Source: Candidatus Doudnabacteria bacterium | Lineage (GTDB): Bacteria > Patescibacteriota > JAQUNI01 | DNA: 64,000 bases | Direction: 5' to 3' | NCBI GenBank assembly: GCA_041644975.1 | Contig: JBAZQX010000001.1 | Location: 39,274-103,273, forward strand | In this document: piece by piece, positions 23,148 through 63,601 of the stretch | Position numbering within the stretch: position 1 is the stretch's first letter | How the letters are laid out: every line of letters starts with the position of its first letter | Position numbers and translations under genes: made by a program | The notes under the pieces: model-generated | Database searches by the model: none | Seen by the model: the letters and a program-made list of their open reading frames with translations, nothing else | Told to the model about the DNA's origin: nothing

Positions 23148-23149
23148 TA

Positions 23150-23260
23150 AATCCTAAACAATATCTAAATTCAGAATCTAAAATTCAAAACTATTTTGAA
23201 TTTAGAGCTTTAGATTTTGAATTTGTTTAGAATTTAGGATTTAGAATTTAGGGTTTCTTT
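23150..23260. repeat. intergenic palindrome of tandem ctaaat/tctaaa units (aatcctaaacaatatctaaattcagaatctaaaattcaaa ... tttgaatttagagctttagattttgaatttgtttagaatttaggattt)
   Basis: Direct reading. Confidence 0.65.
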
Positions 23261-36948: not shown

Positions 36949-37902
36949 TTAAAAGTAGAGTTTTTTCCGACGCATTAGACCGCCACTTTGCAAGAGCAAA
37001 ATAGTGTTGCCTAAGAGAACACCGAACCAAAAGGTACATAGACGGATGATCAGAATAGAACAGCCGGCTTGCGCTTTATTAATTCCGATGGAGGAAAGCA
37101 GGAATAACATAGTTCCTTCCATGGTACCTATTCCTCCAGGGAGAAAAGTAAGTGCTCCGATAATAGTAGAGAGAGAATAAATAAATGTACTCTCTAGGAG
37201 GCTTATGGGGGCCCTTAAACCCTGAAAGATCAAATAGAAGGCACAACTTTCTAAGAACCAGGCGATGACACTGCTACCCAATGCCAAAGAGGTTGATTTT
37301 GGGTTTAGTAATTGATAGGTGCTGAAGTATATTTTTTTGAGTTTTATAGCAATACCAGCTGTAATTTTCTTTTTTGCGAAGAAGCCAATAACACGAAGCA
37401 TTAATTTCCGCCAGCGGATCAAGATCAGGCAAAGGGTGAGAAATAAAAAAAGAAAGAAAGGAAGGACTAAACTGTAATGAAAGGCTAGGGATCCGATGAA
37501 GACGAGGATTACCATTGCTAGTAGGTCGGTTAAACGTTCCACAATGACTATAGGAGCAGACAGACTTATTGGTACCTCATTTTTTTTCTTTAAGAAATAA
37601 GATTTACTGAAATCTCCTAATTTTGCGGGGATAATACCGAGCCCGAAAGAAGCCAGAAAGATGATCAAGCTATCTTTTAAATTAACCTTGATTTTGATAA
37701 CGTGGCAATAATAATGCCAACGTCCAAAGCGGATCAAAGTTCCTGCAGTTATGGCACTTAAAATAAGGAATAAATAGGGCCAAGAGAAATTGTGTAGGGC
37801 TTCTAAAATTTGTTCAAGACCAGCATAAATCATCAAGATCAGATAAATCAAAATTGAGAAGGCTATTACAAACAAAATATTTCTACTGATATTTTTTTTC
37901 AC
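36949..37902 (-). CDS. flippase-like domain membrane protein (UPF0104 / lysylphosphatidylglycerol-synthase TM-region family)
   Basis: The 317-aa protein has 8 TM helices, an N-terminal MKKNISRNILFV... start and a C-terminal basic tail. The family assignment is by pattern only. Confidence 0.45.
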   Translation of the reverse strand: MKKNISRNILFVIAFSILIYLILMIYAGLEQILEALHNFSWPYLFLILSAITAGTLIRFGRWHYYCHVIKIKVNLKDSLIIFLASFGLGIIPAKLGDFSKSYFLKKKNEVPISLSAPIVIVERLTDLLAMVILVFIGSLAFHYSLVLPFFLFLFLTLCLILIRWRKLMLRVIGFFAKKKITAGIAIKLKKIYFSTYQLLNPKSTSLALGSSVIAWFLESCAFYLIFQGLRAPISLLESTFIYSLSTIIGALTFLPGGIGTMEGTMLFLLSSIGINKAQAGCSILIIRLCTFWFGVLLGNTILLLQSGGLMRRKKLYF

Positions 37903-37907
37903 TATTT

Positions 37908-39017
37908 TTATTTATTGATAATTTCAAAGGTTTCGGACCAGATTTCTAAACCTTCCCTGAATTTTTGTAAAAATGTGATCTCTTCGGGACCGAATAACTT
38001 ATCATTACTGAACTCTTGATTAAGATCTCTGACAATTTCTTTGAAGCAACCATGATAGTCTTGTTGGGTGAGTCTAATTTTGCGTAAAATATCCGTAAAG
38101 CGATCCGTAAGTTTGCTTCCCTCTCGTTCTTTATCTAAGTCTTTCCAAATATCATGAGGATTCCTTATTTGACGTACCAGAGGATAACCACAGGTAACAA
38201 AATGTCCTAGATGATCAGCAACTTTTTTCACAATATAGCTTGCCCAGATATCGTCATATCTTCCTATATAAGGACTTAAGAAATAAGCAGGTAATACTTC
38301 GCGGGAGAGTGCTGTATTTTGGGAGTTAAATGGAGACCAAGTTCCTTTGCCCAAAGCAGCCGTAGGCGCGTATTCTGCTTTCATCCATGTGGCTCGTACG
38401 GGATAATTTAGGCGGCTTACTGCATCCACATCAGGATCGTCTAGCCATAAACCAGCATTTACTACTACCTTACCTTTAATTTTTTCCTTAATGAAGTTAG
38501 ATTCCCCTGCCCTACCTTTTTGAGATGAGGGATAACCGCGATGATAGAAACAATTATTGTTAGCTTCTTGAAGGAACTCACAAATGTTGAGCCAGCCTGT
38601 TTTTGAACTATAAGATATGAGTTCTCTTTCCATTCCTATAATACTATGGCTACCCACAAAATCTTGTTCAGAGATTACAAGGTTATCATCATCAATGGTA
38701 ATAATAATATCTGCCCCGCGTTCATAGGCAAAGAGCAGACCTATATTACGTCTTTGGATAGAGTTAAAAGGTAAGTGCTCCCAGAGTTTAGGAAAGCGCT
38801 CAAGATAATTAAATTGGATATCAATGTCTTGATAATAGACGGGATAGTTAAATTTGGTTTGTAGCATAGAACAAAATTTGTGGGTATCCGGTGGACTTTT
38901 TTTATCGCCAATAACTACAAAGAATAGATCTTGATGTCCGTAGTCTTGAGCGTTTTTTGCATAGTCTTTGAGTAAGGTGGGAATATTGATGGTTGTGGTA
39001 ATAATTGCAGTTTTCAT
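37908..39017 (-). CDS. putative GT-A nucleotide-diphospho-sugar transferase, RGP/GT75-like
   Basis: It has the N-terminal IITTTINIP and IIITIDDDN (a DDD motif as in reversibly glycosylated polypeptides). The call is weak. Confidence 0.3.
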   Translation of the reverse strand: MKTAIITTTINIPTLLKDYAKNAQDYGHQDLFFVVIGDKKSPPDTHKFCSMLQTKFNYPVYYQDIDIQFNYLERFPKLWEHLPFNSIQRRNIGLLFAYERGADIIITIDDDNLVISEQDFVGSHSIIGMERELISYSSKTGWLNICEFLQEANNNCFYHRGYPSSQKGRAGESNFIKEKIKGKVVVNAGLWLDDPDVDAVSRLNYPVRATWMKAEYAPTAALGKGTWSPFNSQNTALSREVLPAYFLSPYIGRYDDIWASYIVKKVADHLGHFVTCGYPLVRQIRNPHDIWKDLDKEREGSKLTDRFTDILRKIRLTQQDYHGCFKEIVRDLNQEFSNDKLFGPEEITFLQKFREGLEIWSETFEIINK

Positions 39018-43215: not shown

Positions 43216-44301
43216 TCATCTTTTGTTTAATAAAATATCCAGAATTCTTTGTCCCGCGTGTCCATCTCCAAAAGGATTACGCCATTTTTTTTCTTTCCGC
43301 CATGCCATCTTTAAAGCGCAATTCAGAATCTTTTGGGGCTCGGTGCCGCTTAAAATATTTGCCCCTATTTCCAGGGTCTCGGGTCGTTCTGTGTTATCAC
43401 GTAGGGTAACGCAGGGCACTTTTAAGATACAAGCTTCTTCTTGGATGCCGCCGGAATCAGTTAAAATGAGTCTGGCGTTTTTTTCTAACAATAAAAAATT
43501 CAGATATCCTAAAGGCGGGATCAACTTTATTTTAGGTGTGATTTTGAGCCCGAAAAACTTGATCATTTTTTGGGTGCGCGGATGAATAGGGTAAACAATA
43601 GGTAAATGAAACTGATGATAAATTAGCTGCAAACCTTGCAGAATGTTTTTTAATCTTAGTGGTTTATCTGTGTTTTCTTGGCGGTGCACTGTGACGAGAA
43701 TGTATTGGCCTTTTTTTATTTTTAAACTTTTGAGGATTTCAGTTTTCCCTTGTTTGATTTTAAGATTTTGTTTTAGGGCATCAACAATGGTATTGCCTGT
43801 CAGAAAAATTTTTTCTTTGGGGATTCCCTCAGATTTTAGGGTTTTAACAGCATTCCTCGTAGGGGCAAAAAGATAATCCGAGCAATGATCAGCAAGGATG
43901 CGGTTAATTTCTTCCGGCATCTGACGGTAATAGCTGCGCAACCCTGCTTCTATATGGCCAAGTTGGATACCATTGAGTTTTGAGACGGCAAGCGCTGCCG
44001 CAAGGACGGTGTTGGTGTCCCCTTCGGTTAAAATAATACTAGGTTTTTCTTTGAGGAGCACCTTTTCAATTCTAATCAACATTTTTCCAGTCGTTTCGGC
44101 ATGTGTTCCTGATCCCACTTTTAAGTTATATTTTGCTTTGGGTAATTTGAGCTCCTGAAAAAAGACCTCACCTAGGTTCTTTGCGTAATGTTGATTGGTG
44201 TGCAGGAGGAAGAACTTAATTTTACGTTTTTGGCACTCTCTGATTATGGGTGACATTTTAATGATTTCCGGTCTTGTGCCTAAGATGATGCCGATTTTCA
44301 T
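43216..44301 (-). CDS. wecB: UDP-N-acetylglucosamine 2-epimerase
   Basis: KIGIILGTRPEIIKMSPI, DTNTVLAAALAVSKLNGIQLGHIEAGLRSY and the epimerase_2 pattern are present. It could alternatively be the NeuC-type hydrolysing enzyme given neuB/neuA nearby. Confidence 0.8.
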   Translation of the reverse strand: MKIGIILGTRPEIIKMSPIIRECQKRKIKFFLLHTNQHYAKNLGEVFFQELKLPKAKYNLKVGSGTHAETTGKMLIRIEKVLLKEKPSIILTEGDTNTVLAAALAVSKLNGIQLGHIEAGLRSYYRQMPEEINRILADHCSDYLFAPTRNAVKTLKSEGIPKEKIFLTGNTIVDALKQNLKIKQGKTEILKSLKIKKGQYILVTVHRQENTDKPLRLKNILQGLQLIYHQFHLPIVYPIHPRTQKMIKFFGLKITPKIKLIPPLGYLNFLLLEKNARLILTDSGGIQEEACILKVPCVTLRDNTERPETLEIGANILSGTEPQKILNCALKMAWRKEKKWRNPFGDGHAGQRILDILLNKR

Positions 44302-44346
44302 GGAAGATTAATGTTTATATACGCCTTCTATAAGGGAGGAATGAAT

Positions 44347-45522
44347 TTATAATTTTTTTAATAAATTGATTTCTGTTTGGGCAATTTTGTTCCAGTCGAA
44401 TTGTTGGACATATTGATAACCAGCCTCTGCCTGTTTCTTTCTTAAAAGATCATTTTTCAGATAATGATTAATCTTCATTGCAAATTCATCTTTTTTGCCC
44501 ACGGGAACAGATATAAAATTATCCTGCCAAACCATTGTTAGCGCCGGCAGAGCATAGGCGATTACAGGAAGCCGGCACGCCATTGCTTCGCCTATGACAA
44601 TTGCCCAATTTTCTTCATAGCTGGGGAGAATAAACAAACGGGCTTGGCTTAAAGTTTTGATCTTACATTCAAAGTCCAGAATCGGTCCTAAAAAGAGAAT
44701 ATTTTTTTCCAATTTTTGTTCTTTGATGCGAGTGCGGAGTGCCTTTTCATCTTCTCCTCCGCCAATAATAATTAATTGAGCATTGGGATTTTTTTGCATC
44801 ACTTGTTGCCAGATAGGAATTAAATCAAATACACCCTTTACTGCTTGGATTCTTTTCATAAACACAGCGGTATATTTTTTTTCGTGAATCTGTGAAGCTA
44901 GATGATTAATTTTTTGCAAATGGATACCGCATTTTACAGGAAAAATTTTTCTATGTGTAATTTTGAGCTTGTAAAGCTGTTCAGCTGTGGTTTCACTTAC
45001 TGCAAATATGGTTTGAGCAAAGTACTTGATTAACAGGACGCTTATTCTTTCGGCAATTAAGAAAAGGAGAGAATAAATAAGTTTTGATTCTTGACGTCGC
45101 CAGAATTTTAAACCGGGAACCCAATGTACGACTGCCGCCCATTTAATTTTTTTGCTCATACATTTAAGCTTTAAGGCAGGAATGATATCCCAAAGCAGTT
45201 CATTGGCGGAGTAAATGACGCCTTCCCGGAATTTTTTAAGTTGTTTTGGTATCCAGAACAATAGCTTTAAACTTAAGAAAACATAATCTAATTTTCCGGC
45301 ATAATTTCTTTTTTGAAATAAATTATAAGTGATTACATTCTTTAGGTTAAAGATACGGCAGAATGTTTCTCCCCCGCTAGAAACCAAAAGATGGGTTTCC
45401 CAATTATTTTTGAGCGCTCCCCTTATTATTTCAGCTAACCGCACTTCTCCCCCGGAAAATCCTCCCTTTGATAATTCTTTAGAAATGCCCGTACAGATAA
45501 AAAGAATTTTATTTTTCATCAT
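44347..45522 (-). CDS. GT-B fold glycosyltransferase (GT4/GT1-like)
   Basis: It has the C-terminal ENWAIVIGEAMACRLPVIA (EX7E-like) motif. Confidence 0.55.
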   Translation of the reverse strand: MMKNKILFICTGISKELSKGGFSGGEVRLAEIIRGALKNNWETHLLVSSGGETFCRIFNLKNVITYNLFQKRNYAGKLDYVFLSLKLLFWIPKQLKKFREGVIYSANELLWDIIPALKLKCMSKKIKWAAVVHWVPGLKFWRRQESKLIYSLLFLIAERISVLLIKYFAQTIFAVSETTAEQLYKLKITHRKIFPVKCGIHLQKINHLASQIHEKKYTAVFMKRIQAVKGVFDLIPIWQQVMQKNPNAQLIIIGGGEDEKALRTRIKEQKLEKNILFLGPILDFECKIKTLSQARLFILPSYEENWAIVIGEAMACRLPVIAYALPALTMVWQDNFISVPVGKKDEFAMKINHYLKNDLLRKKQAEAGYQYVQQFDWNKIAQTEINLLKKL

Positions 45523-45599
45523 TTTTTATTTAACTGTCTCCTTTTGAGTCTTAAGCTCTGGCCTTTCAGCATAGAACAGTAGAGTTTAATGAGAAAGAT

Positions 45600-46709
45600 T
45601 TAGTGGAAATAACTTTTTATTGCGTTCGTGATGTAAATAATTTCTTTTTCTTTTAGTTCGGGAAATAGAGGCAGAGAGAGAATTGTGGTGGCACATTCTT
45701 CCGTGATGGGTAGATCACCCTTTTTGTATTCTAACTCTTTGTAGGCTTTTTGGAGATGGATAGGAACGGGGTAATGAATTAAAGTTTGGATTCCTTTACT
45801 CTCCAGATGTTTTTTAAAGCCATCCCTATCATTTTGGCAACGAATTACATAGAGATGATAAATATGATATCCATATTTTGGTTTTTGAGGCAAGGATATT
45901 TGGGGAACATTTCTAAGCAGCTTTGAATAGAGATTAGCGTGTTTCATCCTTTGTTGATTAAAGGAATCTAAATGTTTTAATTTAAATCTTAAGATCGCAG
46001 CTTGCAGTTCATCTAGACGGCTGTTAGTGCCTTTCATAGTGTAAATATCCCTTTCTTTGCGGCCATAAAAGCGAAGCATTTTAAGCCTTTCGGCGATTTT
46101 TTTCTGATTAGTAACAATCATTCCCCCATCGCCGTAAGCACCGAGATTTTTTGTGGGGTAGAAGCTAAAACAACCAGTGATTCCAAACCCACCTACCTTT
46201 TTGCCTTTGTATTTTGCGCCGTGAGCTTGACAGGCATCTTCAATCACAGCAAGTTTATATTTCTTGGCAACTTTCAGAATGGGTGCCAAGTTACAACTTT
46301 GCCCATACAGATGGACAGGGATAATTGCCCTGGTTTTGGGAGTAATATGTTTTTTTAAAAGATCTGGATTGAGAGTGTAGAATGTCGGGTCAATATCTAC
46401 AAACACAGGTTTGGCATTGATTTGAGAGATTGCTGCCGCTGTTGCTTGGGCTGTATTCGCTACGGTGATTACTTCATCATCCTTGCCGATTCCCAAAACT
46501 TTCAAGGAGAGAGTTAAGGCATCAGTGCCCGAGGCTACGCCGATGGCAAACTTTACACCTATATATCGGGCGAATTCTTCTTCAAATTGTTCTACTTCTG
46601 GTCCTAAAATAAAGCAGTCTTTTTGGAAGACCCTTCGGAGAATACTATTAATTTCTTTACGGAAAATCCGGTATTGTCTTTTTAAAGTGAAGAAAGGAAT
46701 TTGCATCAA
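45600..46709 (-). CDS. DegT/DnrJ/EryC1/StrS-family PLP-dependent sugar aminotransferase (or dehydrase)
   Basis: It has ILGPEVEQFEEEFARYIG, GVASGTDALTLSL and the overall pattern of sugar aminotransferases. Confidence 0.8.
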   Translation of the reverse strand: MMQIPFFTLKRQYRIFRKEINSILRRVFQKDCFILGPEVEQFEEEFARYIGVKFAIGVASGTDALTLSLKVLGIGKDDEVITVANTAQATAAAISQINAKPVFVDIDPTFYTLNPDLLKKHITPKTRAIIPVHLYGQSCNLAPILKVAKKYKLAVIEDACQAHGAKYKGKKVGGFGITGCFSFYPTKNLGAYGDGGMIVTNQKKIAERLKMLRFYGRKERDIYTMKGTNSRLDELQAAILRFKLKHLDSFNQQRMKHANLYSKLLRNVPQISLPQKPKYGYHIYHLYVIRCQNDRDGFKKHLESKGIQTLIHYPVPIHLQKAYKELEYKKGDLPITEECATTILSLPLFPELKEKEIIYITNAIKSYFH

Positions 46710-47719
46710 GATAAATAATATTTTTGATAACGTCGGTAATAGTTAAATGTTTTTCTTAAACCCTCTTTTAGACTGATCCGAGGTTGCCAGTCTAAAGCTT
46801 TTTTGATCTTTTGAAAACTGCAATAGCAGTCGCCAATATCAATTTTTTTCTTTTCGGGTGGAAAGGGTGTTAATTTGTAATTGCCACGGCCATAAATTTT
46901 AATCATCAATTTTGCAATATTTTTGAGGGTAATAGGTTTGGGATGTCCTAGGTTGAAAATCTCACCATTAGTTTTCGGGGAAGCTGCAGCTTTTAAAAAT
47001 GCTTCCACGACATCATCTACATAATTTAAGTCCCGACGTTGCATTCCGTCACCAAAGATATTAATTTCTCCATTGGTCAAAATCTGATGGATAAACCAGC
47101 CGATGAAACCTTGCCGGTTATGTCTGATCAGTTGTCTGGGACCGTAAGTATTCGTTAAGCGGAGAGCAGTGGTGGGCAGGCCGTAAATTTTATTGTAGAG
47201 GATATGATACCATTCCCCTGCCATTTTATTGATGCCATTTATATCTGCAGGCCGCAGAATGTGTTTTTCATCCACAGGAAGATAGTCGGGGTGGCCATAA
47301 ATCTGGCGAGTAGATGCAAAAATAATTTTTACACCAGGATTATATTTGCGACAGGCTTCAAGGAGGGAAAGCTGACTGGCACAATTTATTTCTAGATCTT
47401 TTTGGGGATTTTCCATACTGTCAATATGACTCACTTGTCCGGCAAGATTAAAAATATAGTCACATTTTCGAACCAGGTATGTCATACTATGCTTATCGCG
47501 CATATCCGAAATATTAACTTTGACTTTGCGGCGAATGTCTTTAATATTAAAAATATTGCCTCCATGGTCCGGAACTAGAGAATCTATAATTAAAATTTTA
47601 GCATTAAGTTTTACTAGCCTTTGCGCTAGATTACTGCCAATAAAACCCAATCCTCCTGTAATCATTATTTTTTTGTGGGTAAAGGTATTTTTTAAATTAA
47701 ATTTAGATTTAGGTTCCAT
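46706..47719 (-). CDS. NAD-dependent sugar-nucleotide epimerase/dehydratase (SDR)
   Basis: It has ITGGLGFIGSNLAQRL (Rossmann) and WYHILYNKIYG/YxxxK context. Confidence 0.65.
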   Translation of the reverse strand: MEPKSKFNLKNTFTHKKIMITGGLGFIGSNLAQRLVKLNAKILIIDSLVPDHGGNIFNIKDIRRKVKVNISDMRDKHSMTYLVRKCDYIFNLAGQVSHIDSMENPQKDLEINCASQLSLLEACRKYNPGVKIIFASTRQIYGHPDYLPVDEKHILRPADINGINKMAGEWYHILYNKIYGLPTTALRLTNTYGPRQLIRHNRQGFIGWFIHQILTNGEINIFGDGMQRRDLNYVDDVVEAFLKAAASPKTNGEIFNLGHPKPITLKNIAKLMIKIYGRGNYKLTPFPPEKKKIDIGDCYCSFQKIKKALDWQPRISLKEGLRKTFNYYRRYQKYYLS

Positions 47720-47751
47720 ACTACTGAGTTTTTTTTCTTAATATACAATAT

Positions 47752-48927
47752 TTAAGATATATTGTGATATAGGTTTTGATAAGCCTTCAGAATAAGGCGT
47801 GCAGAGGCATCACTTAATTTGTTAACATGTTTTAGTCCTTTTTGCGCCATTTGTTGAAGCAAGAGAGGATTTTTATAGGCAAGATTAATTTTGTCAGCTA
47901 GAGCTTTTTCTTTTGTTTTGACAATAAAAGCAAAATTCTTGTTTAATGTATAAGGTTTTGCCCCGCGATTGGTGACAATTATTGGTGTGCCACACGCTAA
48001 GGCCTCATTTATGGCACGTGACATATCTTCATGATAGCGTGCCGGATAACAAAAGATATCTGCTGCATTATAATACCATGATAACTGATTGTAAGGGATA
48101 TTGCAGACAAAATTAAAATTCTTCAGTTTTTTCTTAGCATTTTTAATTTGGGGCAGAAGCGGACCCTCATCACCTACTATGAAAAAATTAATTTTCTGCA
48201 ATCTCTTTGCAAGTTTAATAATTAAATCCGCTCCTTTTAAATAGATTAAGCGTCCAATAAAAATGACAGTGAATTTATGGAGGGGCCAGTTTAATTTTTG
48301 ACGCGCCGCATTTTGATTAAGGGGCTGAAAACGTTTTAAGTTAACCCAATGCACAAAGATTTGAATTTTAGAAGGATTAACGCCGATCGTCTCTAATTCT
48401 TTTTTGGAATCCTGCGATTGGGCTAAAATAAGATTATGAGCCGCAAATACTTTTTGTAATAGTCGGGCAAAAAAGGAGCGGGGGCTGAAATTATATATGG
48501 AGTGGGTGCTGGTAATGAGCTTTTTATCCTTAAAAATTTTTTTGAGAATATAACCAATAAAGGCAGCGTTTAAACCATGGCTGTGGATTATATCAATTCG
48601 TTTCCTATTTTTCAACATAAATAAAAAAGAGCGTAAAAGAAGATAGGGGGTGATATATAAGAAGAGTAAGATTTTATGGTTTTCTAAAAGGTGAAAAAGA
48701 TTAAAACCAGGCCAACGGAAGCGATAAATTTCCACTTCACCTCTTTTTTCGTGGGGAGGTCCGGTAGTCCGATTAGTCAGTGGTTGATAGGTCAGAACGT
48801 ACACTTTAAAACTATTTGCATCTAGATAATCACATAAATCATCCAAATGTGTTTCCACCCCGCCCACATTGGGACTAAAACAAGGAGTAAGAATGAGAAT
48901 ATTTTTGCCTCCGTTTTGACATCGCAT
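47752..48927 (-). CDS. GT4-family glycosyltransferase
   Basis: It has the GT-B layout, FIGRLIYLKGADLI and the C-terminal INEALACGTPIIVT. Confidence 0.65.
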   Translation of the reverse strand: MRCQNGGKNILILTPCFSPNVGGVETHLDDLCDYLDANSFKVYVLTYQPLTNRTTGPPHEKRGEVEIYRFRWPGFNLFHLLENHKILLFLYITPYLLLRSFLFMLKNRKRIDIIHSHGLNAAFIGYILKKIFKDKKLITSTHSIYNFSPRSFFARLLQKVFAAHNLILAQSQDSKKELETIGVNPSKIQIFVHWVNLKRFQPLNQNAARQKLNWPLHKFTVIFIGRLIYLKGADLIIKLAKRLQKINFFIVGDEGPLLPQIKNAKKKLKNFNFVCNIPYNQLSWYYNAADIFCYPARYHEDMSRAINEALACGTPIIVTNRGAKPYTLNKNFAFIVKTKEKALADKINLAYKNPLLLQQMAQKGLKHVNKLSDASARLILKAYQNLYHNIS

Positions 48928-48937
48928 AATAATGAGA

Positions 48938-49798
48938 CTAATTGTACTGTTGATCTTTTCGGATAATGGAAATCATTGGCGAATAAAAGCCCATTTTACC
49001 TATTATTTTGAGTAAACCGCGTAATTGGAAGAAATCTAAAAATTTAATTACTTTTACTAAAGCTGGGCTGCGGCTACAGAAATCATTTTGATTTATTAGT
49101 GCCAGCCATTCCTCTAAAGATTTATTGGTACAGATTAATCCTTGTTTTTTCACTTCTTTTTTCAAAGAATGAGGGGTAATAAAGTTTAGAGTATGAAAGA
49201 AGTTCGGGTTTCTTCTTCGTAATTTTAAATACCACCTATTAATTATTCTTGGCAACCAAGGGATGAAAAAAAGATAATAGATATTGCAATACATCACCAT
49301 ATAGTTAATATTGATACAGTAGATTGCACCATTATCCTTGAGTACCCGTTTAAGCTCTTTCCAAAACAAATCTCGGTCTTGCACATAGTCAGCCACATAA
49401 TGCACATTGATAAGGTCAAAAAAGGAGTCTGGGAAAGGCAGATAACCCTTGTTTACTTTCTGAATTTTTTGCTCGTCTTGATTATTATGTCTTAATAAAT
49501 TTTGGGAAATGCCAATAAGTTCATCATCCGTTTCATAGCCATAGCAGTCAAGCCCTCTTTTAAGACAATAAGATATAAAATATCCAAAGCCGCTCCCCGC
49601 ATCAAGGATTTTGTCTTCTTTTTGACGCGGTAAATATCGCGCCATTTGCTGGTATTGTTTTTTCGCTTCTTCAAAATTGTAACCAGTGTCTAATAGCTTT
49701 TGGATGTTTAAATGGGGTGGTAATACTCCTTCATACATTCTCTTAAGATAATGGTACATTCTTTTTCTTAACTTTTGCTCCTGTCTTTTTCTTTCCAT
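48938..49798 (-). CDS. class I SAM-dependent methyltransferase
   Basis: It has ILDAGSGFGYF (GxGxG motif I) and VLKDNGAIY (motif III-like). Confidence 0.6.
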   Translation of the reverse strand: MERKRQEQKLRKRMYHYLKRMYEGVLPPHLNIQKLLDTGYNFEEAKKQYQQMARYLPRQKEDKILDAGSGFGYFISYCLKRGLDCYGYETDDELIGISQNLLRHNNQDEQKIQKVNKGYLPFPDSFFDLINVHYVADYVQDRDLFWKELKRVLKDNGAIYCININYMVMYCNIYYLFFIPWLPRIINRWYLKLRRRNPNFFHTLNFITPHSLKKEVKKQGLICTNKSLEEWLALINQNDFCSRSPALVKVIKFLDFFQLRGLLKIIGKMGFYSPMISIIRKDQQYN

Positions 49799-49968
49799 AT
49801 TTATTTTTTACCTTCCTCCGTTGAAAACTACAGGCGTAAGGTAAGTGGAGCTTACGCGTCTTCTATTTTTGGTTAATATGAAATAAAAACTCGTGTTTTT
49901 TAGAAGAGGAAATAGGTATAGCTATATGCTCTGTTTTAAGCAATTTTCTATTTTTATAAGTAAGGGGG

Positions 49969-51546
49969 TTATCCTGCGTAAGTTCTATTTTTTAAAAGAG
50001 ATTTAAGTTTATATTTAATTAGTTGTTGGGACCAATACAATTCTCCTCGTAAAATTTGAAATGGTAAAAAACCGTGACCTAGGCGCCAATTAAGCCAGAT
50101 TTTGATAATGGGAATAAGGAATAATGGAAGACGTGAAAAAAGGCGAAGCAGCTTTGGGTTTCTGCTTATTTTTTTTGCCGTCTGTATGGGCAAGAGAGGA
50201 AGTGAAGTGAGAAAAAGAGCAAAATTTTTGTAATAGTCGCGAGCCTCTTCACTCTTTTTGGAGAAAATGCCAGTTTCATAAACAATTGATTCCCCTCGCT
50301 CTATTTCAGGTATGTCTTCAAGCCTTAGGTTGCCAGCTTGAAGTGCATAATCAATGATTTTTGCCTTGGGAAAATAAAGAAGATTAAAACAATTAATCAT
50401 ATCAGGACGAATTTCACTATATAAGTTGATTGATTTTTGAATATCAAAATCAAAGGGGATATCAAAGATATGATCAATCATAAATTTTAAATGATACTTT
50501 TTACAGATGTAAGCCGCTCTTTTTATTTCTTTATTGCTTTCATACCGGTGGAGAATTTCTCGTCTGATTTTTTCATCCCCTGATTGAATTCCAAAAGCGG
50601 CCAAGCGGCAACCACTGGCCTTTAGAAGGAAGGCAGTTTTTTCGTCTAATAGTCGTGCGTGGACAAAACAGGTGTAGGGTAAGCGCACCTTTTGACGATA
50701 TAATTTACTAAAATTAGCGAACCAAGCTTTATCCATTGTTAAAACATCATCCACAAAAATTATTTCTTTGATCCGATAATTCTTTTTTAAGAAGAGTAAC
50801 TCATTAATAACAGAGGATACACTTCTTTGTCGAAGATATCGTCCTTTTCCTTGATAAACCTTTCTTTTCTGTTCGTTGCCGCAGTAGGTACAGTTAAAAG
50901 GACAACCGCGGCTTGTTAAAGAGTTAACATTTTGGGTCAAAAATTTTGGAAATTGATTCCAAAAAAGATTACGGTCTAAGAAGGGATATTGATCCAAATC
51001 TTCTTGAAGGGGTCGAGGCATATTCTTTATTATATTTCCTTTGCTCTTAAACCAAATATTAGGGATATCAGTGCGGCCATCCTTTTTTTGAAGACTATTT
51101 ACAAGTTCCAGGAAAGCCTCTTCACCTTCACCGACGCAGACCATATCCACGCAGGGATTCTGGATAACAAGGTCCGGGACTAGAGTGGGATGGACTCCTC
51201 CAAAGATTATGGGGGTATCCAGAACCTTTTTAATTTCTTGCGCAAAGGATAAAGCCCATTGATAAGTGGCGGTAACGCAAGAAAAAGCAATGAGGTCTGG
51301 TTGGAGGGCTTGAATCTTTTCTAAATTTATTCTTTTCCAATCAAAAAACCTCGCTAAGAAAGAGTTGCGGAGATAGGAGCGATCAAACTGTTTAGGGTCA
51401 TAGATTAGGTAAACTGTGTGACCATTCTGTTTAAGGTAGGAAGAAATATATTCCACCCCCAAATTTTCGTCCTCACTAACTGCGAAAACAATCTTCATAT
51501 TCTTTTCCTCGGTTGAATAATCTATTGCAACAGAGGGGAATGCCAA
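49969..51546 (-). CDS. B12-binding-domain-containing radical SAM enzyme (class B radical SAM; possible methyltransferase)
   Basis: It has an N-terminal B12-binding-like fold (KIVFAVSEDE...), SRGCPFNCTYCGN (CxxxCxxC) and is 525 aa. Confidence 0.7.
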   Translation of the reverse strand: MAFPSVAIDYSTEEKNMKIVFAVSEDENLGVEYISSYLKQNGHTVYLIYDPKQFDRSYLRNSFLARFFDWKRINLEKIQALQPDLIAFSCVTATYQWALSFAQEIKKVLDTPIIFGGVHPTLVPDLVIQNPCVDMVCVGEGEEAFLELVNSLQKKDGRTDIPNIWFKSKGNIIKNMPRPLQEDLDQYPFLDRNLFWNQFPKFLTQNVNSLTSRGCPFNCTYCGNEQKRKVYQGKGRYLRQRSVSSVINELLFLKKNYRIKEIIFVDDVLTMDKAWFANFSKLYRQKVRLPYTCFVHARLLDEKTAFLLKASGCRLAAFGIQSGDEKIRREILHRYESNKEIKRAAYICKKYHLKFMIDHIFDIPFDFDIQKSINLYSEIRPDMINCFNLLYFPKAKIIDYALQAGNLRLEDIPEIERGESIVYETGIFSKKSEEARDYYKNFALFLTSLPLLPIQTAKKISRNPKLLRLFSRLPLFLIPIIKIWLNWRLGHGFLPFQILRGELYWSQQLIKYKLKSLLKNRTYAG

Positions 51547-51756
51547 TACCTTTTTCTAAAATAATCTTCTTTTAAGAGGAGATAAAGAAAAATGGATATT
51601 GAATTGCGCTTATACTTTTATTAGGTCTGTCCCCCTTTTTCCTTAATATTTTTTTTCACCCGTGCGTTGCAACAGAAATTTGAAGCTACCATCATAAAAC
51701 TATCCCCAAATCTGTCTTATCCTACACCAGCCTGTCTCTAAGTGCGTATGGTGCAT

Positions 51757-51830
51757 AGTTTCGCCTTCTAAAATTCCGTCTGGACCTGATGCTCATGAGC
51801 TGTCAGGCCGGGGAGGGTTTCACTCTGAGT
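51757..51830. repeat. conserved intergenic two-hairpin motif, copy 2 (agtttcgccttctaaaatt ... gatgctcatgagctgtcaggccggggagggtttcac)
   Basis: See copy 1. It lies ~260 nt upstream of the radical SAM gene start. Confidence 0.55.
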
Positions 51831-51842
51831 TTAAAACTATGA

Positions 51843-52697
51843 TTAAGTAAAGTTTTTGAAGTCCACATCTTCGGGTTTGTATTTTGGTTTCCATCCTTTC
51901 AGTTTTTTGATATTGGCGCGGGAAAACATTTGTTCATTTTGTCTGTATGGTACTGCCCCATAGATAATCCGAGAGTGAGAATGGAGGTTATTTTTAATTA
52001 TTTTGACCAAATTTTTGAGAAACATAGTTTTCCCGGTGCCGATTTGAAATTCTTCAAAAATTTTCTTAAATTTTTGACAGTTTTGGATTAAATGCAAAAT
52101 CGCATCTACACAATCTTTGATATAAATAAAGTCTAAATTTTGTTTTCCCTGCGTCATCTTGATGACTTTATTGCTTCTAAGTTTATCTATGGCAAAAGGG
52201 ATAAATTTTTTTGGGTCATCATTTTTACCGTAAACATATTGCAATTCCAAATTAAATATTTTAATCGGACATAAAGAATATTTTTTTAAAAGAGAGTATA
52301 GAACGTGTTTAGAATAAGCATAGAGATTTATATTATCATTAAGTGCGGAATCAAAATTAAAATAGTATTTAATCTTGAATGCACAGCATTTTTCAATGAG
52401 ACGAAGGGCAAAGACAATATTAGTATCCATAATTTGGCTGGGCAGTGAGTTTTTATTTTTCCCCTGATCTACAGCTAGATTTATTACTAGGTCAATTTTG
52501 TTTTTCTGGAATGGTAGAGCTAGATTGCATTCATCAATATCATAGATTTTAATTTGAGGAATAAATTTTTTAATCCGGGTGAGATCCGAAAACTTTCTTT
52601 TCACTACAATCACCTTATAACGATTTGTAAGAAGGGAGGGCAGAAGGTGACTACCGATAAAACCTGTGCCCCCGGGTATGAGGATCGTCTTAATCAT
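51843..52697 (-). CDS. NAD(P)-dependent sugar-nucleotide reductase/epimerase (SDR)
   Basis: It has ILIPGGTGFIGSHLLPSL (Rossmann) and YAYSKHVLY (YxxxK). Confidence 0.6.
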   Translation of the reverse strand: MIKTILIPGGTGFIGSHLLPSLLTNRYKVIVVKRKFSDLTRIKKFIPQIKIYDIDECNLALPFQKNKIDLVINLAVDQGKNKNSLPSQIMDTNIVFALRLIEKCCAFKIKYYFNFDSALNDNINLYAYSKHVLYSLLKKYSLCPIKIFNLELQYVYGKNDDPKKFIPFAIDKLRSNKVIKMTQGKQNLDFIYIKDCVDAILHLIQNCQKFKKIFEEFQIGTGKTMFLKNLVKIIKNNLHSHSRIIYGAVPYRQNEQMFSRANIKKLKGWKPKYKPEDVDFKNFT

Positions 52698-53815
52698 AGA
52701 GTTTTGGATTTCTGGAAGAAATATTGAATCTGTTGATTTGTGAATTTAGTAATCTCTGCTAGCCTTTTCGGCTTTTGATAGTAATTTTTATACCAATCCA
52801 AAGTAAATTGCAGGCACTCTAGAAAGGTGAGGCGGGGTTGCCATCCTAAAATTGTCTTTGCCTTGGTTGTATCTAACTTCAGTAGCTGCGCTTCATGCTT
52901 CTTTTGATCTCTTTGAATTTTTAATTTACCTTTTCGGATTATTTTCAGGCTGGTTTTTACTAAGTCTTGGACATAAACAAAACTTGCGTCATCGGGTCCA
53001 AAATTCCAAGCTCCTACTAACTGAGTTTGTTTTTCCCATAGTCCTTTAGCTAACATTAGATATCCTTCCAAAGGTTCTAGAACATGTTGCCAGGGCCTGA
53101 TTGCCCTGGGATTACGTATGATAATGGTTTTTTCTTTAATATATATTGCTCGTATGATATCTGGGATGAGGCGATCCGGAGCCCAATCGCCGCCCCCAAT
53201 AACATTTCCCGCGCGAGCAACAGCGATGAGGGTGTTATGCTTTTTATTAAACTCTTTGGGATTAAAAAAAGATTGAATATAGGATTGAGTTGCAATGTCC
53301 GCCGCTGCCTTGCTGGCACTGTAAGGATCGTAACCTCCTAAAGCATCTATCTCGCGATAGGGGTAAATATATTCCTTATTTTCATAAACTTTATCCGTAG
53401 TAATAATGACCGCGGATTTCACTGTATTAATATTGTTTATAGCTTGAAGGAGGTTCACTGTACCTAGAACGTTTGTAGAATAGGTTTTTAGGGGATCATT
53501 ATAACCCTCACGGACCAAGGATTGGGCTGCAAGATGAAAAACAATCTCGGGTTTTTCTTTTTGTAGAATATTTTTTATTTTGGGAAAATCACGGATATCC
53601 ACGAAATGATTTTTGATCTTACCTTTTAATTTCAGAATACTAAATAAGTTCGGATTTTCTATAGATGCCAAAGAAAGGCCAACTATTTTAGCCTTCCAAT
53701 TTAATAGGATTTGAGTAAGCCAGGATCCTTTAAAGCCTGTATGTCCGGTGATTAAAATTTTTTTATTTTGAAAAAAATTCTGCATTTTATTCCTTCCAAA
53801 TTTTCCACATAGCAT
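52694..53815 (-). CDS. rfbG: CDP-glucose 4,6-dehydratase. The likely true start is the Met at ~53785.
   Basis: ILITGHTGFKGSWL is diagnostic of CDP-glucose 4,6-dehydratase. YSASKAAAD (YxxxK) is also present. Confidence 0.8.
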   Translation of the reverse strand: MLCGKFGRNKMQNFFQNKKILITGHTGFKGSWLTQILLNWKAKIVGLSLASIENPNLFSILKLKGKIKNHFVDIRDFPKIKNILQKEKPEIVFHLAAQSLVREGYNDPLKTYSTNVLGTVNLLQAINNINTVKSAVIITTDKVYENKEYIYPYREIDALGGYDPYSASKAAADIATQSYIQSFFNPKEFNKKHNTLIAVARAGNVIGGGDWAPDRLIPDIIRAIYIKEKTIIIRNPRAIRPWQHVLEPLEGYLMLAKGLWEKQTQLVGAWNFGPDDASFVYVQDLVKTSLKIIRKGKLKIQRDQKKHEAQLLKLDTTKAKTILGWQPRLTFLECLQFTLDWYKNYYQKPKRLAEITKFTNQQIQYFFQKSKTL

Positions 53816-54560
53816 TGCCCGTTTGCCAAAGAGTTTCTAATTTATTTTTATCATTTAGAGTGTCCATCGCTTTCCAAAAACCATTGTGATAATAAGCATA
53901 CAAGTTGCCGCTTTTTGCTAAGTTTTCTAAAGGTTCTTTTTCAAAGATTGTTTCATCTCCTTGGATATAATTAAAAACCGCTGGTTCCAGTACAAAAAAT
54001 CCTCCATTAATATAAGATTGGTTATCGGTTTTTTCACTAAAGCAAGTGATACGCGCTCTGTGATTTATATTTAGAACACCAAAACGGCCTTCTGGAATTA
54101 CAGCGGTCAAAGTAGCAATTTTTCCATGTTTCTTATGAAAAGTAAGGAGCTTTTTGATATCAATATTTGCTACTCCGTCGCCGTAAGTCGCCATAAAGGT
54201 TTGCTTGCCGATATATTTTTTAATTCTCTTGAAGCGCCCTCCAGTCATCGTATTATCTCCGGTATCAATTAATGTCACCTTCCATCCCTCTGTCTGGTTA
54301 TTATGAAATTTCACCTGATTATTTTTTAAATCAAACGTGATGTCACTGTGATGAAGATAGTAGTCATTAAACCATTCTTTAATACAATCTCCTTTATAAC
54401 CTAGGCAGATAATAAAATCATTGAAGCCGTAAGAGGAGTAGATTTTCATAATATGCCATAAGATTGGTTTCCCCCCAATTTCAATCATAGGCTTGGGCTT
54501 AATTACCGTTTCTTCACTTAAGCGTGTGCCTAAACCACCTGCTAGAATTACTACTTTCAT
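53787..54560 (-). CDS. rfbF: glucose-1-phosphate cytidylyltransferase
   Basis: MKVVILAGGLGTRLSEETVIKPKPMIEIGGKPILWHIM matches RfbF closely. Confidence 0.85.
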   Translation of the reverse strand: MKVVILAGGLGTRLSEETVIKPKPMIEIGGKPILWHIMKIYSSYGFNDFIICLGYKGDCIKEWFNDYYLHHSDITFDLKNNQVKFHNNQTEGWKVTLIDTGDNTMTGGRFKRIKKYIGKQTFMATYGDGVANIDIKKLLTFHKKHGKIATLTAVIPEGRFGVLNINHRARITCFSEKTDNQSYINGGFFVLEPAVFNYIQGDETIFEKEPLENLAKSGNLYAYYHNGFWKAMDTLNDKNKLETLWQTGNAMWKIWKE

Positions 54561-54610: not shown

Positions 54611-55684
54611 CTATTTGGCAGTGAAGGATTTAAAAATCTTTTTCTTATTTTTTTTCAAGATAAATTTTTGGATTACTACATATCCGTAGGCATATAGAAA
54701 CATCAAACAAACTAAAGGATGCATAAACCAGGCTGCATCTTTTTTTTTCCGAAATCCGCGGCAGGCATCTAAAAAGGGTTTCAATATTGTGAGGGTAAAA
54801 AATATATATTCTACTAATAAAAGATTATCCTTGATATTCTTACTATCGTATATTTTATATCTTCTTCTGTCAACAAGTTTGATGCTATGTTTTTGGAAAT
54901 AATCAATTCTTTTTTTGATAAGCCTGCGGAACGAATCACCCGTTTCATGAATAATGGTATTTTTAACGAAAGCGATATTTTGGTAGCCCAATTTAACTAA
55001 ATCAAAGATAATATCAATATGGAAAAGGTCTTCGGGAATAGTTAAAACTTTTTCTAGCAGCTTTCTTCTCACAAGGAAACCATTGCTTCCAACAGTAGGT
55101 AGATCTTGATCAAATTTTACTTTGTAATATATGCCTTGATCGTGAGCACAGCCCTTTAATTTCCAAGATGAATAATAGTAGGGCAAACGGTCCTGCTTTT
55201 TCAAATAGAGAGCCACTGGATCGTTAGCGCCAAATAGCGCACAATAGCGGTTGAATAGAGTATCATTTTTGCGATAAGCGTAACGTAAGGTTTGGGAAGC
55301 AAAAATTTCAGAATCATTGAGGAAGGGTGTCACCATATCTTTAAACCAAGTTTGATAAGGCAAGAGATTGTCTGTATCAATAATTGCTACGATTTCATTG
55401 CGTGCCTTTTTAATTCCCCAAAAGCGACGTGCTTCTTGATTGTCCTGATATCCTCCCTCAATAAATTCAGCTTTATATTTGCGGGCTATTTCTTGACTTG
55501 TATCAGTTGAACCGCCATCAGTAACTAAAATTTCTATCTTCTCTTGGGAGTAGTCTTGGCTACGAATACTCTGGAGGCATTTCTCTAGTTTAGGTGCGTT
55601 ATTGAAGTTGGCGATAACTACAGATAAAGAAAGCCAGCAAGGCTCTGAGATTCGGTGTTTTATTGGAGATGAATTAATTTCCAT
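54611..55684 (-). CDS. GT2-family glycosyltransferase with C-terminal TM helices
   Basis: It has LSVVIANFNNAPKLEKCL, LVTDGGSTD and a DxD region, plus two C-terminal TM helices. Confidence 0.7.
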   Translation of the reverse strand: MEINSSPIKHRISEPCWLSLSVVIANFNNAPKLEKCLQSIRSQDYSQEKIEILVTDGGSTDTSQEIARKYKAEFIEGGYQDNQEARRFWGIKKARNEIVAIIDTDNLLPYQTWFKDMVTPFLNDSEIFASQTLRYAYRKNDTLFNRYCALFGANDPVALYLKKQDRLPYYYSSWKLKGCAHDQGIYYKVKFDQDLPTVGSNGFLVRRKLLEKVLTIPEDLFHIDIIFDLVKLGYQNIAFVKNTIIHETGDSFRRLIKKRIDYFQKHSIKLVDRRRYKIYDSKNIKDNLLLVEYIFFTLTILKPFLDACRGFRKKKDAAWFMHPLVCLMFLYAYGYVVIQKFILKKNKKKIFKSFTAK

Positions 55685-62247: not shown

Positions 62248-62475
62248 CTTAACCTTAAATTACGAAATTCACTTTGTCTATTAGCGAGCGATTTTTTCCT
62301 CCCCTTGACCTGCGGGAGGTTAGCCTGCCCGCCATCGCTTCGCTTCAGGCGAGGCGGGCGGGGAAGGGTCTAATAAATGACTATTCTCCCTCCCCCTCTT
62401 ATCTCCCCGCTCAGGGCAGGGGGAGTGTAATCAAGTTTTTCGCAATGACGACATATTTCGTAATTCATAGTATCT
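62248..62475. repeat. composite repeat region: a copy of the cysN 5' flank (cttaaccttaaattacgaaattcactttgtctattagcgagcg ... tttcgtaattcatag) whose interior is occupied by GC-rich elements (a hairpin at ~62298-62319, the family A core at ~62324-62363 and a family B segment at ~62386-62427)
   Basis: Direct comparison with 31155-31255. The terminal inverted motifs are ATTACGAAA and TTTCGTAAT. Confidence 0.6.
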
Positions 62476-63601
62476 TTAATAATTTTTCTTTTGATTTTGC
62501 GTAATTGTTTTCAGAGAGTTTTTGAGAGGCGAGTTGTTGGATGTTTTGATAAAATGTGGAATCAGAAATTAATTTTTCCGCAAGCTCTATCCCCTGCCCT
62601 GTCCCCGCAATATCGGGAATGGACAGTTCGGGGAAGAATTCTAATTGGTTATTGGCGTTTATGCCGATACTAGGCGTGCCTACGGCGGCGCAATCAGCCT
62701 GTAAGCGACCCAAGGTCCAAGTCTGGTCCGTATTAATTACCAGGAAAAAGCATGCGAGTCTTTTTAAGTTTTCCTGCCACTTTAAGAAAGGAATAATCTC
62801 AAAGCGGGCATGCGCCGTTTTTAGTGGGGCAATATTTGAATGGGGGTAATCTATTACCTGGATCAAAAACTCTGGATATTTTTTTTGGATTTGAACTGCG
62901 GCGAATTGGCCAGCGAGATTATCTGTTCGCTCGGTTTCTCCGGCCACGAGAATAATTTTTTCTTTTTTTTCTCTTTTTTTAAAAAACCGGTCGGCATATT
63001 CAAAGGGATAGAATTGCGGAAAATAAGCTACTTTGGTGTGAAGAAAGGATTGGAGATAATCCTGCGCGTCGCGATTCACATTAATAAAAATATCACAATT
63101 ATTAGCAAAGGTTTTAAAAGCGCGAAATTCATTTTCCTTTTTCCAGACCTCGCGCAACGTTCCTAGAGGACTGACAATGGAACCTAAATAGATCGCGTCA
63201 GGATTGATTTTTTTTGTTTTTCTGATTAAATCTGCCATTAGAGGCATAGAGAAGCTGTGCACCAAGAACAAAATAAGATTAAATTTTTTAAGATAATCCA
63301 AATTGCGATAGATTGGTTTTTTTTGAATCTTTTCCAGGGACAGATCTAGTTTGCGGCCGAGTTTATAGGAAAGAGTATGTGGATTTTGATGGCGGCGCAA
63401 AAAGTTGACTGGGATATGCTCGCCAGAGAGCGCCGATGTCCAACAGCCAAAAGAAGTGGGGTCAATTTCCGTTTCAGGATCGCAGAGATAATTAGGTTTT
63501 TCCGGGGTTGGCCGCCAAATCCTCCCTGTTTTGGTGGAATATTCAATACAGGCAAATCTCATTTTTTCTATAGATTTTTGGAAAATTTTATTCTTGGACA
63601 T
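62465..63601 (-). CDS. hypothetical protein, possibly a GT-B-fold glycosyltransferase
   Basis: It is 378 aa. The C-terminal region TDQTWTLGRLQADCAAVGTPSIG resembles a GT-B donor-binding region. The call is weak. Confidence 0.3.
   Translation of the reverse strand: MSKNKIFQKSIEKMRFACIEYSTKTGRIWRPTPEKPNYLCDPETEIDPTSFGCWTSALSGEHIPVNFLRRHQNPHTLSYKLGRKLDLSLEKIQKKPIYRNLDYLKKFNLILFLVHSFSMPLMADLIRKTKKINPDAIYLGSIVSPLGTLREVWKKENEFRAFKTFANNCDIFINVNRDAQDYLQSFLHTKVAYFPQFYPFEYADRFFKKREKKEKIILVAGETERTDNLAGQFAAVQIQKKYPEFLIQVIDYPHSNIAPLKTAHARFEIIPFLKWQENLKRLACFFLVINTDQTWTLGRLQADCAAVGTPSIGINANNQLEFFPELSIPDIAGTGQGIELAEKLISDSTFYQNIQQLASQKLSENNYAKSKEKLLKIL

Follow-up and report, generated by a model that had tools for sequence, protein, structure and literature searches.

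The 64,000-nt window analysed here (positions 39,274 to 103,273 of contig JBAZQX010000001.1, Candidatus Doudnabacteria) carries on its minus strand, between positions 43216 and 54560, ten co-directional open reading frames (ORFs), one of which encodes a B12-binding (class B) radical S-adenosylmethionine (SAM) enzyme. The original prediction joined these genes into a single operon and a single pathway, leading from cytidine diphosphate (CDP)-4-keto-6-deoxyglucose via the radical SAM enzyme to one CDP-linked C-methyl sugar. Pfam and NCBIfam matches bear out all ten gene identities and their order, with RfbF, RfbG and WecB above their NCBIfam cut-offs, and the two motifs singled out in that prediction, GHTGFKGSWL in RfbG and CxxxCxxC in the radical SAM enzyme, are both present (Table 1). 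Comparison with related loci speaks against the single pathway. With moderate confidence, we read the region as a mosaic of sugar cassettes in a surface-glycan island: a CDP-sugar module (module A, 55684-51843), a second module that appears to be a conserved unit of the candidate phyla radiation, CPR (module B, 51498-44347), and, within the latter, a radical SAM enzyme that would tailor a glycoside.

Table 1 Genes and other features of the window, in order of transcription for the minus-strand row (SDR, short-chain dehydrogenase/reductase; PLP, pyridoxal phosphate)
Feature	Position	Strand	Match or remark
GT2a, GT2 glycosyltransferase	54611..55684	minus	PF00535, 72.9 bits; outside the originally predicted span
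RfbF, glucose-1-phosphate cytidylyltransferase	53787..54560	minus	TIGR02623 equivalog, 407 bits, cut-off 300
RfbG, CDP-glucose 4,6-dehydratase	52694..53815	minus	TIGR02622, 467 bits, cut-off 278
SDR284, 284-aa short extended SDR	51843..52697	minus	PF01370, 104 bits; canonical YxxxK
Non-coding gap, 344 bp, upstream of the radical SAM gene	51499-51842	minus	possible internal promoter region
Class B (B12-binding) radical SAM enzyme, 509 aa	49969..51498	minus	PF02310 and PF04055
Non-coding gap, 170 bp, between radical SAM and methyltransferase genes	49799-49968	minus	
Class I SAM methyltransferase, 286 aa	48938..49798	minus	PF08241, 57.5 bits; hydrophobic C-terminal extension
GT4a, GT4 glycosyltransferase	47752..48927	minus	PF00534 and PF13439
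SDR337, 337-aa extended SDR	46706..47719	minus	catalytic Tyr replaced by Asn
DegT-family PLP aminotransferase, sugar C3-aminotransferase type	45600..46706	minus	PF01041, 407 bits
GT4b, GT4 glycosyltransferase	44347..45522	minus	PF00534, 107 bits
WecB, non-hydrolysing UDP-GlcNAc 2-epimerase	43216..44301	minus	TIGR00236, 425 bits, cut-off 210
Wzx-like flippase	3734-5182		
WecA/MraY-like transferase	526-1599		

From 17228 to 59574 (42 kb), all ORFs of 150 aa or more lie on the minus strand; hence the ten-gene ‘operon’ is not a bounded unit. Nearly all of these ORFs are glycan-biosynthesis genes, and glycan functions extend over almost the whole window. The predicted ~11-kb minus-strand operon is thus right as to the ten co-directional genes, but not as to its limits, and GT2a, outside its span, belongs with rfbF-rfbG. 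From rfbF-rfbG to past wecB, neighbouring genes overlap or are separated by at most 77 bp, except at the two gaps around the radical SAM gene. This gene is set off by its gaps, whereas genes within the modules are tightly spaced, which was counted in favour of the modular reading. The GC content at third codon positions is 0.32-0.355 from GT2a through GT4b, 0.40 in WecB and 0.43-0.45 in the YfhO and TagF genes. Over the window, GC content is 0.33-0.39 between ~24 and 56 kb and 0.40-0.44 elsewhere, and no tRNA genes that could mark island boundaries were found.

The 344-bp gap, with a GC content of 39%, is slightly richer in GC than its neighbours. Neither gap contains a terminator-like site, and no ORF of at least 25 aa is confined to either of them; no small genes were found there. 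A riboswitch or other structured RNA was rejected, with no Rfam match at the gathering threshold or at E ≤ 1 in either gap and a fold z-score of 0.24, not significant, for the longer one. Promoter-like hexamers occur at two sites of the 344-bp gap (51718-51691 and 51546-51519), although such matches over the scanned region barely exceed the shuffle expectation and CPR promoters are not characterised, which makes them weak evidence. The gap may correspond to a promoter or to the remnant of a lost gene.

In module A, the glucose-1-phosphate cytidylyltransferase and the CDP-glucose 4,6-dehydratase, both above NCBIfam cut-off, are shared with the CDP-3,6-dideoxyhexose pathway. RfbG, whose start is probably the ATG near 53785, contains ILITGHTGFKGSWL and, as motifs, GHTGFKGSWL, TTDKVYE and YSASK. 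Its gene overlaps both rfbF and the SDR284 gene, the latter by 4 nt, and a 50-bp gap separates GT2a from rfbF. SDR284 has few homologs, the distant ones being labelled CDP-paratose synthetase by JGI, and is a probable CDP-4-keto-6-deoxyhexose 4-reductase. A related locus, L096, contains in order a GT2 (58% identical to GT2a), RfbF (69%), RfbG (49%), a 431-aa E1-like DegT protein, an SDR, an RmlC-like epimerase and an SDR284 homolog (53%). The single class B radical SAM enzyme nearby is only 23% identical to that of the window. On the strength of this synteny, GT2a is assigned to the CDP-sugar genes; together with it, rfbF, rfbG and the SDR284 gene would form a module of their own, of which the window holds a trimmed version reduced to GT2a, RfbF, RfbG and the 4-reductase.

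The comparison with the complete rfb/asc pathway to CDP-3,6-dideoxyhexoses bears on the expected product. RfbF and RfbG equivalogs and a short RfbS/RfbJ/AscF-like reductase are common to both. In contrast, E1 dehydrase, E3 reductase and epimerase are all missing here, and no E3-like reductase was found among the window ORFs. Without E1 dehydrase and E3-like gene, the 3,6-dideoxy (E1/E3) route is excluded. Module A would therefore lead from glucose-1-phosphate through CDP-glucose and CDP-4-keto-6-deoxyglucose to a CDP-6-deoxyhexose rather than a 3,6-dideoxyhexose, and GT2a is expected to transfer this sugar.

The radical SAM gene most likely starts at ATG 51498 rather than at TTG 51546, because of the GAGGA upstream and of the agreement with homolog N-termini. 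The B12-binding domain PF02310 (67.9 bits, cut-off 32.1) covers residues 27-148 of the long ORF, and PF04055 (58.8 bits, cut-off 29.5) contains the C199-x3-C203-x2-C206 motif. These three cysteines do not vary among 111 homologs, and neither do the GGxHxT and GEGE motifs. With the AF2 model (pLDDT 94), the best Foldseek folds were TsrM and MgmA (top), AprD4, OxsB, CysS and TokK, at 13-18% identity and TMq ~0.6; E-values against TsrM, MgmA, OxsB, CysS and TokK ranged from 1e-14 to 1e-20 with a probability of 1.0. The enzyme shares with these solved structures the N-terminal Rossmann B12 domain, the CxxxCxxC barrel and the C-terminal helical domain. On the other hand, identity to them is low and the C-terminal amphipathic/hydrophobic helices are specific to the family of the window enzyme.

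A profile search of PDB sequences gave weak matches, with AprD4 (53 bits) on top and TokK at 50 bits. NCBIfam models of class B enzymes were all below cut-off (score/cut-off: HpnJ 98/577, the top match, PhpK 92/600, BchE 91/481, BzaD 90/450, KedN5 55/700, HpnR 52/650, AprD4 26/500). Assignment to a characterised family was rejected, since NCBIfam, the PDB sequence search and Foldseek gave nothing specific; the family check proposed with the original prediction thus placed the enzyme with neither the methylating nor the non-methylating families. Judging from domains and model, it is a bona fide class B enzyme of a family without characterised member, for which cobalamin binding and methyl transfer from methylcobalamin are predicted. 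A B12-like domain does not guarantee cobalamin use, as AprD4 shows. The protein is 100% identical to a protein of a Candidatus Doudnabacteria metagenome-assembled genome, and named homologs come from Falkowbacteria, Patescibacteria and Aenigmarchaeota (CPR/DPANN). The family is large, with 3,480 clusters at 50% identity for E ≤ 1e-30 and at least 150 for E ≤ 1e-82. No member linked to glycans or glycosyltransferases appears in a 2026 review of B12 radical SAM enzymes, which does not mention GT4 or methyltransferase fusions either (PMC12931638). Likewise, no relevant publication was found in the literature on B12 radical SAM enzymes with CDP-glucose, CPR, polysaccharide or glycosyltransferase.

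The neighbourhoods of homologs carry the argument for a separate module B. The close set consisted of eight non-redundant loci with radical SAM homologs of 42-56% identity, each taken with 10 kb on either side. Among the matches listed, the scan of genome contigs gave only relatives at 27-37%, used as the background set, and the scan of metagenome contigs gave one useful locus, a duplicate of L084. No RfbF homolog and no true RfbG ortholog was found within the 10-kb flanks of any of the eight close loci. In contrast, a DegT gene lies within 6 kb of the radical SAM gene in seven of the eight, compared with 10 out of 83 loci around more distantly related class B enzymes (Fisher p = 1.7e-5), and a GT4 gene is a neighbour in 5/8 versus 10/83 (p = 0.003). 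Two close loci, L003 (Falkowbacteria) and L092, contain a fusion of the radical SAM enzyme with a GT4a ortholog and, after it, separate genes for SDR337 (61-62%), DegT (50-56%), one or more methyltransferases and a GT4b-like enzyme. L003 and L092 match module B, and L096 matches module A.

The N-terminal half of the fusion protein P0020 (residues 1-497) shares 52% identity with the window radical SAM enzyme, and its C-terminal half (residues 505-883) shares 50% with GT4a residues 4-383; by sequence, P0020 joins the orthologs of the two window proteins. Among the top 150 representatives at 50% identity, C-terminal GT4 fusions were found in P0020, P0319 and P0324, the last two with GT4 domains closer to GT4b (68-90 bits), and C-terminal class I methyltransferase fusions in P0087, P0345 and P0360. 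Fusions to a second radical SAM domain are also present in this set. The order radical SAM-methyltransferase-GT4a in the window looks like the unfused version of these architectures.

Several other features of the homologous loci were observed. Among P0361, P0410, P0420, P0451 and L087:5770-8484, some proteins bear an additional radical SAM domain of the non-B12 kind; in P0420 there is an HMPTM-type zinc ribbon as well. An intein lies within the radical SAM of P0451, and the adjacent carbamoyltransferase of the Aenigmarchaeota locus carries one too. Two or three distinct B12-binding radical SAM paralogs are common in CPR glycan loci (L001, L084, L085, L086, L092, L093), each adjoining a GT2 or methyltransferase gene, and radical SAM tailoring may be a general feature of CPR surface glycans. 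Near radical SAM homologs of 49-52% identity, L085 (17381-21003) and L003 (6896-9962) have genes for a cytidylyltransferase-phosphoenolpyruvate (PEP)-mutase fusion, a phosphonopyruvate-decarboxylase-like thiamine pyrophosphate enzyme and an iron-type alcohol dehydrogenase, and L003 also one for a CDP-alcohol phosphatidyltransferase. These genes for a 2-hydroxyethylphosphonate-type decoration resemble the Fom1/Fom2/FomC/Fom3 logic of fosfomycin.

The DegT protein of module B keeps the Schiff-base lysine (Lys186 in FSFYPTK186NLG), aligned with the lysine of QdtB. Its closest solved relatives are 7b0d (420 bits), QdtB (354), DesV (329), WlaRG (300) and WbpE (270), ahead of the C4-aminotransferases perosamine synthase and ArnB (180-200), E1 (3bb8, 115) and ColD (92); against the RfbH model it scores 173 bits, below the cut-off of 423. 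The lysine and this ranking indicate an aminotransferase of the C3 type, with a C3 regiospecificity predicted from similarity. For the same two reasons, an E1/ColD-type 3-dehydrase dependent on pyridoxamine phosphate, with His in place of Lys, was ruled out. The protein had been called ‘aminotransferase or 3-dehydrase’; only the former holds.

The start of the DegT gene overlaps the stop of the SDR337 gene, which lies directly upstream of DegT in every locus examined. No cupin 3,4-ketoisomerase or GFO-type dehydrogenase was found in the window, hidden genes included, and SDR337, translationally coupled to DegT, is the sole candidate for the putative supply of its keto-sugar. The DINGINK segment of SDR337 aligns with SPYGxxK of three solved epimerases (4zrm, 9rl0, 1orr), with Asn at the Tyr position; it departs here from the classical YxxxK triad of the GalE/RmlB type, and the L003 and L092 orthologs show the same substitution. 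Of the 120 best homologs, which are 61-68% identical and in many cases from Chloroflexi, 117 carry N-G-x-x-K, and the subfamily, which spans CPR and Chloroflexi, has the signature PTDVNGINKMAGE; STRQ[IV]YG. SDR337 has STRQIYG and lacks the Asp-Glu pair of 4,6-dehydratases; with neither this pair nor the Tyr, a role as 4,6-dehydratase was ruled out. Its second-best solved relatives are CDP-tyvelose 2-epimerases (141-146 bits). Orthologs lie at L003:12662-13648, L092:8828-9868, L094:8001-8996 and L095:8001-9020. In the last two loci, from Chloroflexi, the SDR337 (62-63%) and DegT (51-55%) orthologs are adjacent with neither a radical SAM nor a 4,6-dehydratase gene nearby, suggesting an independent amino-sugar cassette whose starting point is a common nucleoside diphosphate (NDP)-sugar.

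Tyr-less SDR dehydratases paired with DegT aminotransferases are known from PglF/PglE and from the CapE- and FnlA-type MxxxK enzymes. As in these pairs, a Tyr-less extended SDR is here encoded directly upstream of a DegT enzyme and translationally coupled to it. However, SDR337 has Asn where those enzymes have Met, STRQIYG rather than the Thr-Asp-Lys motif of PglF, and a place in a GalE/tyvelose-epimerase-like branch.

As for the remaining genes of the row, the class I methyltransferase exceeds the cut-off of no curated NCBIfam family, and GT4b is 27-29% identical to the GT4 in the equivalent position of L003 and L092. WecB is absent from all the related radical SAM loci; it would supply UDP-ManNAc separately and may feed the NeuB route, encoded elsewhere in the window, rather than module B.

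Taken together, SDR337 and DegT would convert a common NDP-sugar into an NDP-amino sugar, with amination most likely at C3. GT4a and GT4b would place sugars on an acceptor, probably membrane-bound. The hydrophobic segments of GT4a (KD19 1.88) and of the C-terminal helices of the radical SAM enzyme (KD19 1.51) are only suggestive of such a membrane association. The radical SAM enzyme and the class I methyltransferase would, together with GT4a, tailor the glycoside, probably after or alongside glycosyl transfer, as in the case of gentamicin GenD1. Of the conceivable reactions, C-methylation at an unactivated sugar carbon is the most likely, with N- or O-methylation in addition. C-methylation is favoured here as a prior, because methyltransferases make up the large majority of characterised class B enzymes (PMC12931638).

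The closest functional parallel is found in gentamicin biosynthesis, in which the oxidoreductase GenD2, the transaminase GenS2, the N-methyltransferase GenN and the radical SAM enzyme GenD1 form the garosamine tailoring set and act in turn, on the way to gentamicin X2, on a sugar that a glycosyltransferase has already attached; both GenD1 and GenK methylate their glycosides once the sugar has been transferred (PMC4340712). In module B as well, an oxidoreductase, a C3-type aminotransferase, a class I methyltransferase and a cobalamin radical SAM enzyme occur with a (GT4-type) glycosyltransferase, and the radical SAM-GT4 fusions suggest the same chemistry on the glycoside post transfer. On the other hand, there is no detectable orthology, the radical SAM enzyme matching only generic class B models, and the oxidoreductase is an atypical SDR. 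The setting also differs, a CPR cell-envelope glycan island versus an actinomycete antibiotic cluster, and step order and substrates are here predicted. MoeK5 offers another comparison, since it acts on a lipid-linked sugar. This enzyme is listed as a Csp3-methyltransferase (PMC12931638).

Some observations weigh against this modular, glycoside-level reading. It rests on eight close loci only, in two of which true SDR337 orthologs accompany the radical SAM gene; the SDR in the others is RmlB-like, UXS-like or tyvelose-epimerase-like. In L001, an NTP-transferase and an RmlB-type 4,6-dehydratase gene lie directly beside GT4, radical SAM and DegT genes, and 4-keto-6-deoxy sugars may therefore be linked to the radical SAM family. 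In other loci, homologous radical SAM enzymes have class I methyltransferases next to them or fused to them, but no close ortholog of the window methyltransferase was found in related loci, and its orthology to the fused domains was rejected as unsupported (E = 0.04); the link between the two enzymes therefore holds at the level of fold and enzyme class only. The oxidising role proposed for SDR337 is uncertain because its catalytic Tyr is missing. Methylating and non-methylating class B enzymes cannot be told apart by sequence. Finally, modules A and B could be co-transcribed, because their genes are co-directional and no terminator-like sites were found.

These last features also favour the reading originally put forward, in which all ten genes form one pathway and CDP-4-keto-6-deoxyglucose is reduced, aminated and C-methylated while CDP-linked, the branched amino-deoxy sugar then being transferred by the GT4 enzymes. 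The contiguity of the genes, the uniform third-position GC from GT2a to GT4b, the L001 arrangement and the relationship of SDR337 to CDP-tyvelose 2-epimerases fit it as well. We nevertheless consider it improbable, given that rfbF and rfbG are missing from all eight close radical SAM loci and that L096 shows synteny for module A alone, GT2a included. In addition, SDR337-DegT occurs without a 4,6-dehydratase in L094 and L095, and a C3-type aminotransferase would, in this pathway, need a 3,4-ketoisomerase, which is not encoded in the window. The partners of the radical SAM enzyme are GT4, DegT and methyltransferases, fusions included, and the radical SAM-GT4 fusions point to action at the transfer step. 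We know of no class B enzyme that acts on a nucleotide sugar. GenK and GenD1, the characterised class B sugar methylases, act on glycosides (PMC4340712).

Another alternative is that the radical SAM enzyme is not a methyltransferase but performs other radical chemistry on the amino sugar or the glycoside. It could catalyse a ring contraction as HpnJ and OxsB do, an AprD4-like 1,2-diol dehydration or a deoxygenation, which an SDR would complete, or a DesII-like C3 oxidation or deamination, either supplying DegT or coming after it. In each case, the class I methyltransferase would account for the sole methylation. An attractive variant would even bridge the two modules, with a putative DesII-like C3 oxidation of CDP-quinovose feeding the C3-aminotransferase. 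HpnJ acts on a glucosamine conjugate and DesI and DesII form a pair; the association with DegT in 7/8 loci recalls both cases. HpnJ is moreover the top NCBIfam match, the diol-dehydratase AprD4 is the top PDB sequence match and, with OxsB, among the best folds, and a class I methyltransferase is available separately in every case. However, these similarities are weak and equalled by those to methylases (PhpK in NCBIfam, TsrM and MgmA as top folds), the B12-binding domain is canonical (68 bits against a cut-off of 32), and the predominance of methyltransferases among characterised class B enzymes points the other way. We regard a non-methylating enzyme as unlikely, though a serious contender. 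Far less probable, in our view, is a non-sugar substituent of the glycan as substrate, as in a Fom3-like methylation of cytidylyl-2-hydroxyethylphosphonate or of another CDP-alcohol head group, or an action on the lipid carrier. The phosphonate genes of L085 and L003, the CDP-alcohol phosphatidyltransferase genes of L001, L003 and L084, and the second-best NCBIfam match, a PhpK-family P-methyltransferase, would agree with it. Against it, the window ORFs of at least 150 aa include no gene for PEP mutase, phosphonopyruvate decarboxylase or CDP-OH_P_transf, the phosphonate association is limited to a minority of loci, and the fusion partners are GT4 and methyltransferase domains.

The surrounding island contains, besides the WecA/MraY-type initiating transferase and the Wzx-like flippase, about eleven GT4 and GT2 enzymes, three or four GT-C enzymes (YfhO, PMT_2, AftD-like), a TagF-like protein, CysD/CysN, NeuB, a CMP-sugar synthetase, a deacetylase and further SDRs. 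The sulfate adenylyltransferase subunits, CysD-like (PAPS_reduct, 31349-32149) and CysN-like (GTP_EFTU, 29916-31205), adjoin a type I phosphodiesterase/sulfatase-superfamily protein (28344-29801), a combination that hints at sulfated or phospho-modified glycans. In the region 21240-23976, the NeuB and SAF domains of a nonulosonic acid synthase are joined within one 635-aa protein to a TIM barrel (AP_endonuc_2) that is xylose-isomerase-like; the neighbouring gene (23248-23976) encodes a CMP-sugar-type cytidylyltransferase. A protein resembling plant reversibly glycosylated polypeptide/STELLO (37908-39017) and an LPG_synthase_TM-type membrane protein (36949-37902) are coupled, with 5 bp between their genes, a pair unusual in bacteria; an LPG_synthase_TM gene also stands beside the radical SAM homolog of the Aenigmarchaeota locus L087. 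ORFs of 825, 562, 684 and 378 aa in the island (24168-28326, 11079-13133, 62465-63601) have no Pfam match at E ≤ 1e-5.

Overall, instead of one exotic CDP-sugar pathway, the cluster comprises an ordinary CDP-6-deoxyhexose cassette and, beside it, a conserved CPR module of greater interest. At the centre of module B is a class B radical SAM family coupled by fusion to GT4s and methyltransferases. Tentatively, and with somewhat less confidence than the mosaic itself, we propose that this family, whose named close members are CPR bacteria and DPANN archaea, modifies cell-surface amino-sugar glycans by radical chemistry, either C-methylation or a rearrangement, at the stage of glycosyl transfer. 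Such a glycosyltransferase-coupled B12 radical SAM step would add a new reaction type to glycan biosynthesis, and the fused GT4 provides a built-in substrate clue for a new class B subfamily. The Tyr-less SDR337-DegT cassette, with SDR337 more than 60% identical between CPR and Chloroflexi, is a second, independent target for work on an amino-sugar route. CPR/Patescibacteria live attached to host cells; to our knowledge, their surface glycans are essentially uncharacterised and CPR organisms are generally held unable to synthesise B12. If the proposal holds, cobalamin radical SAM chemistry would for the first time be assigned to the assembly of envelope glycans, as opposed to antibiotics, cofactors and lipids, and envelope synthesis in the reduced genomes of CPR would depend on external or scavenged cobalamin.

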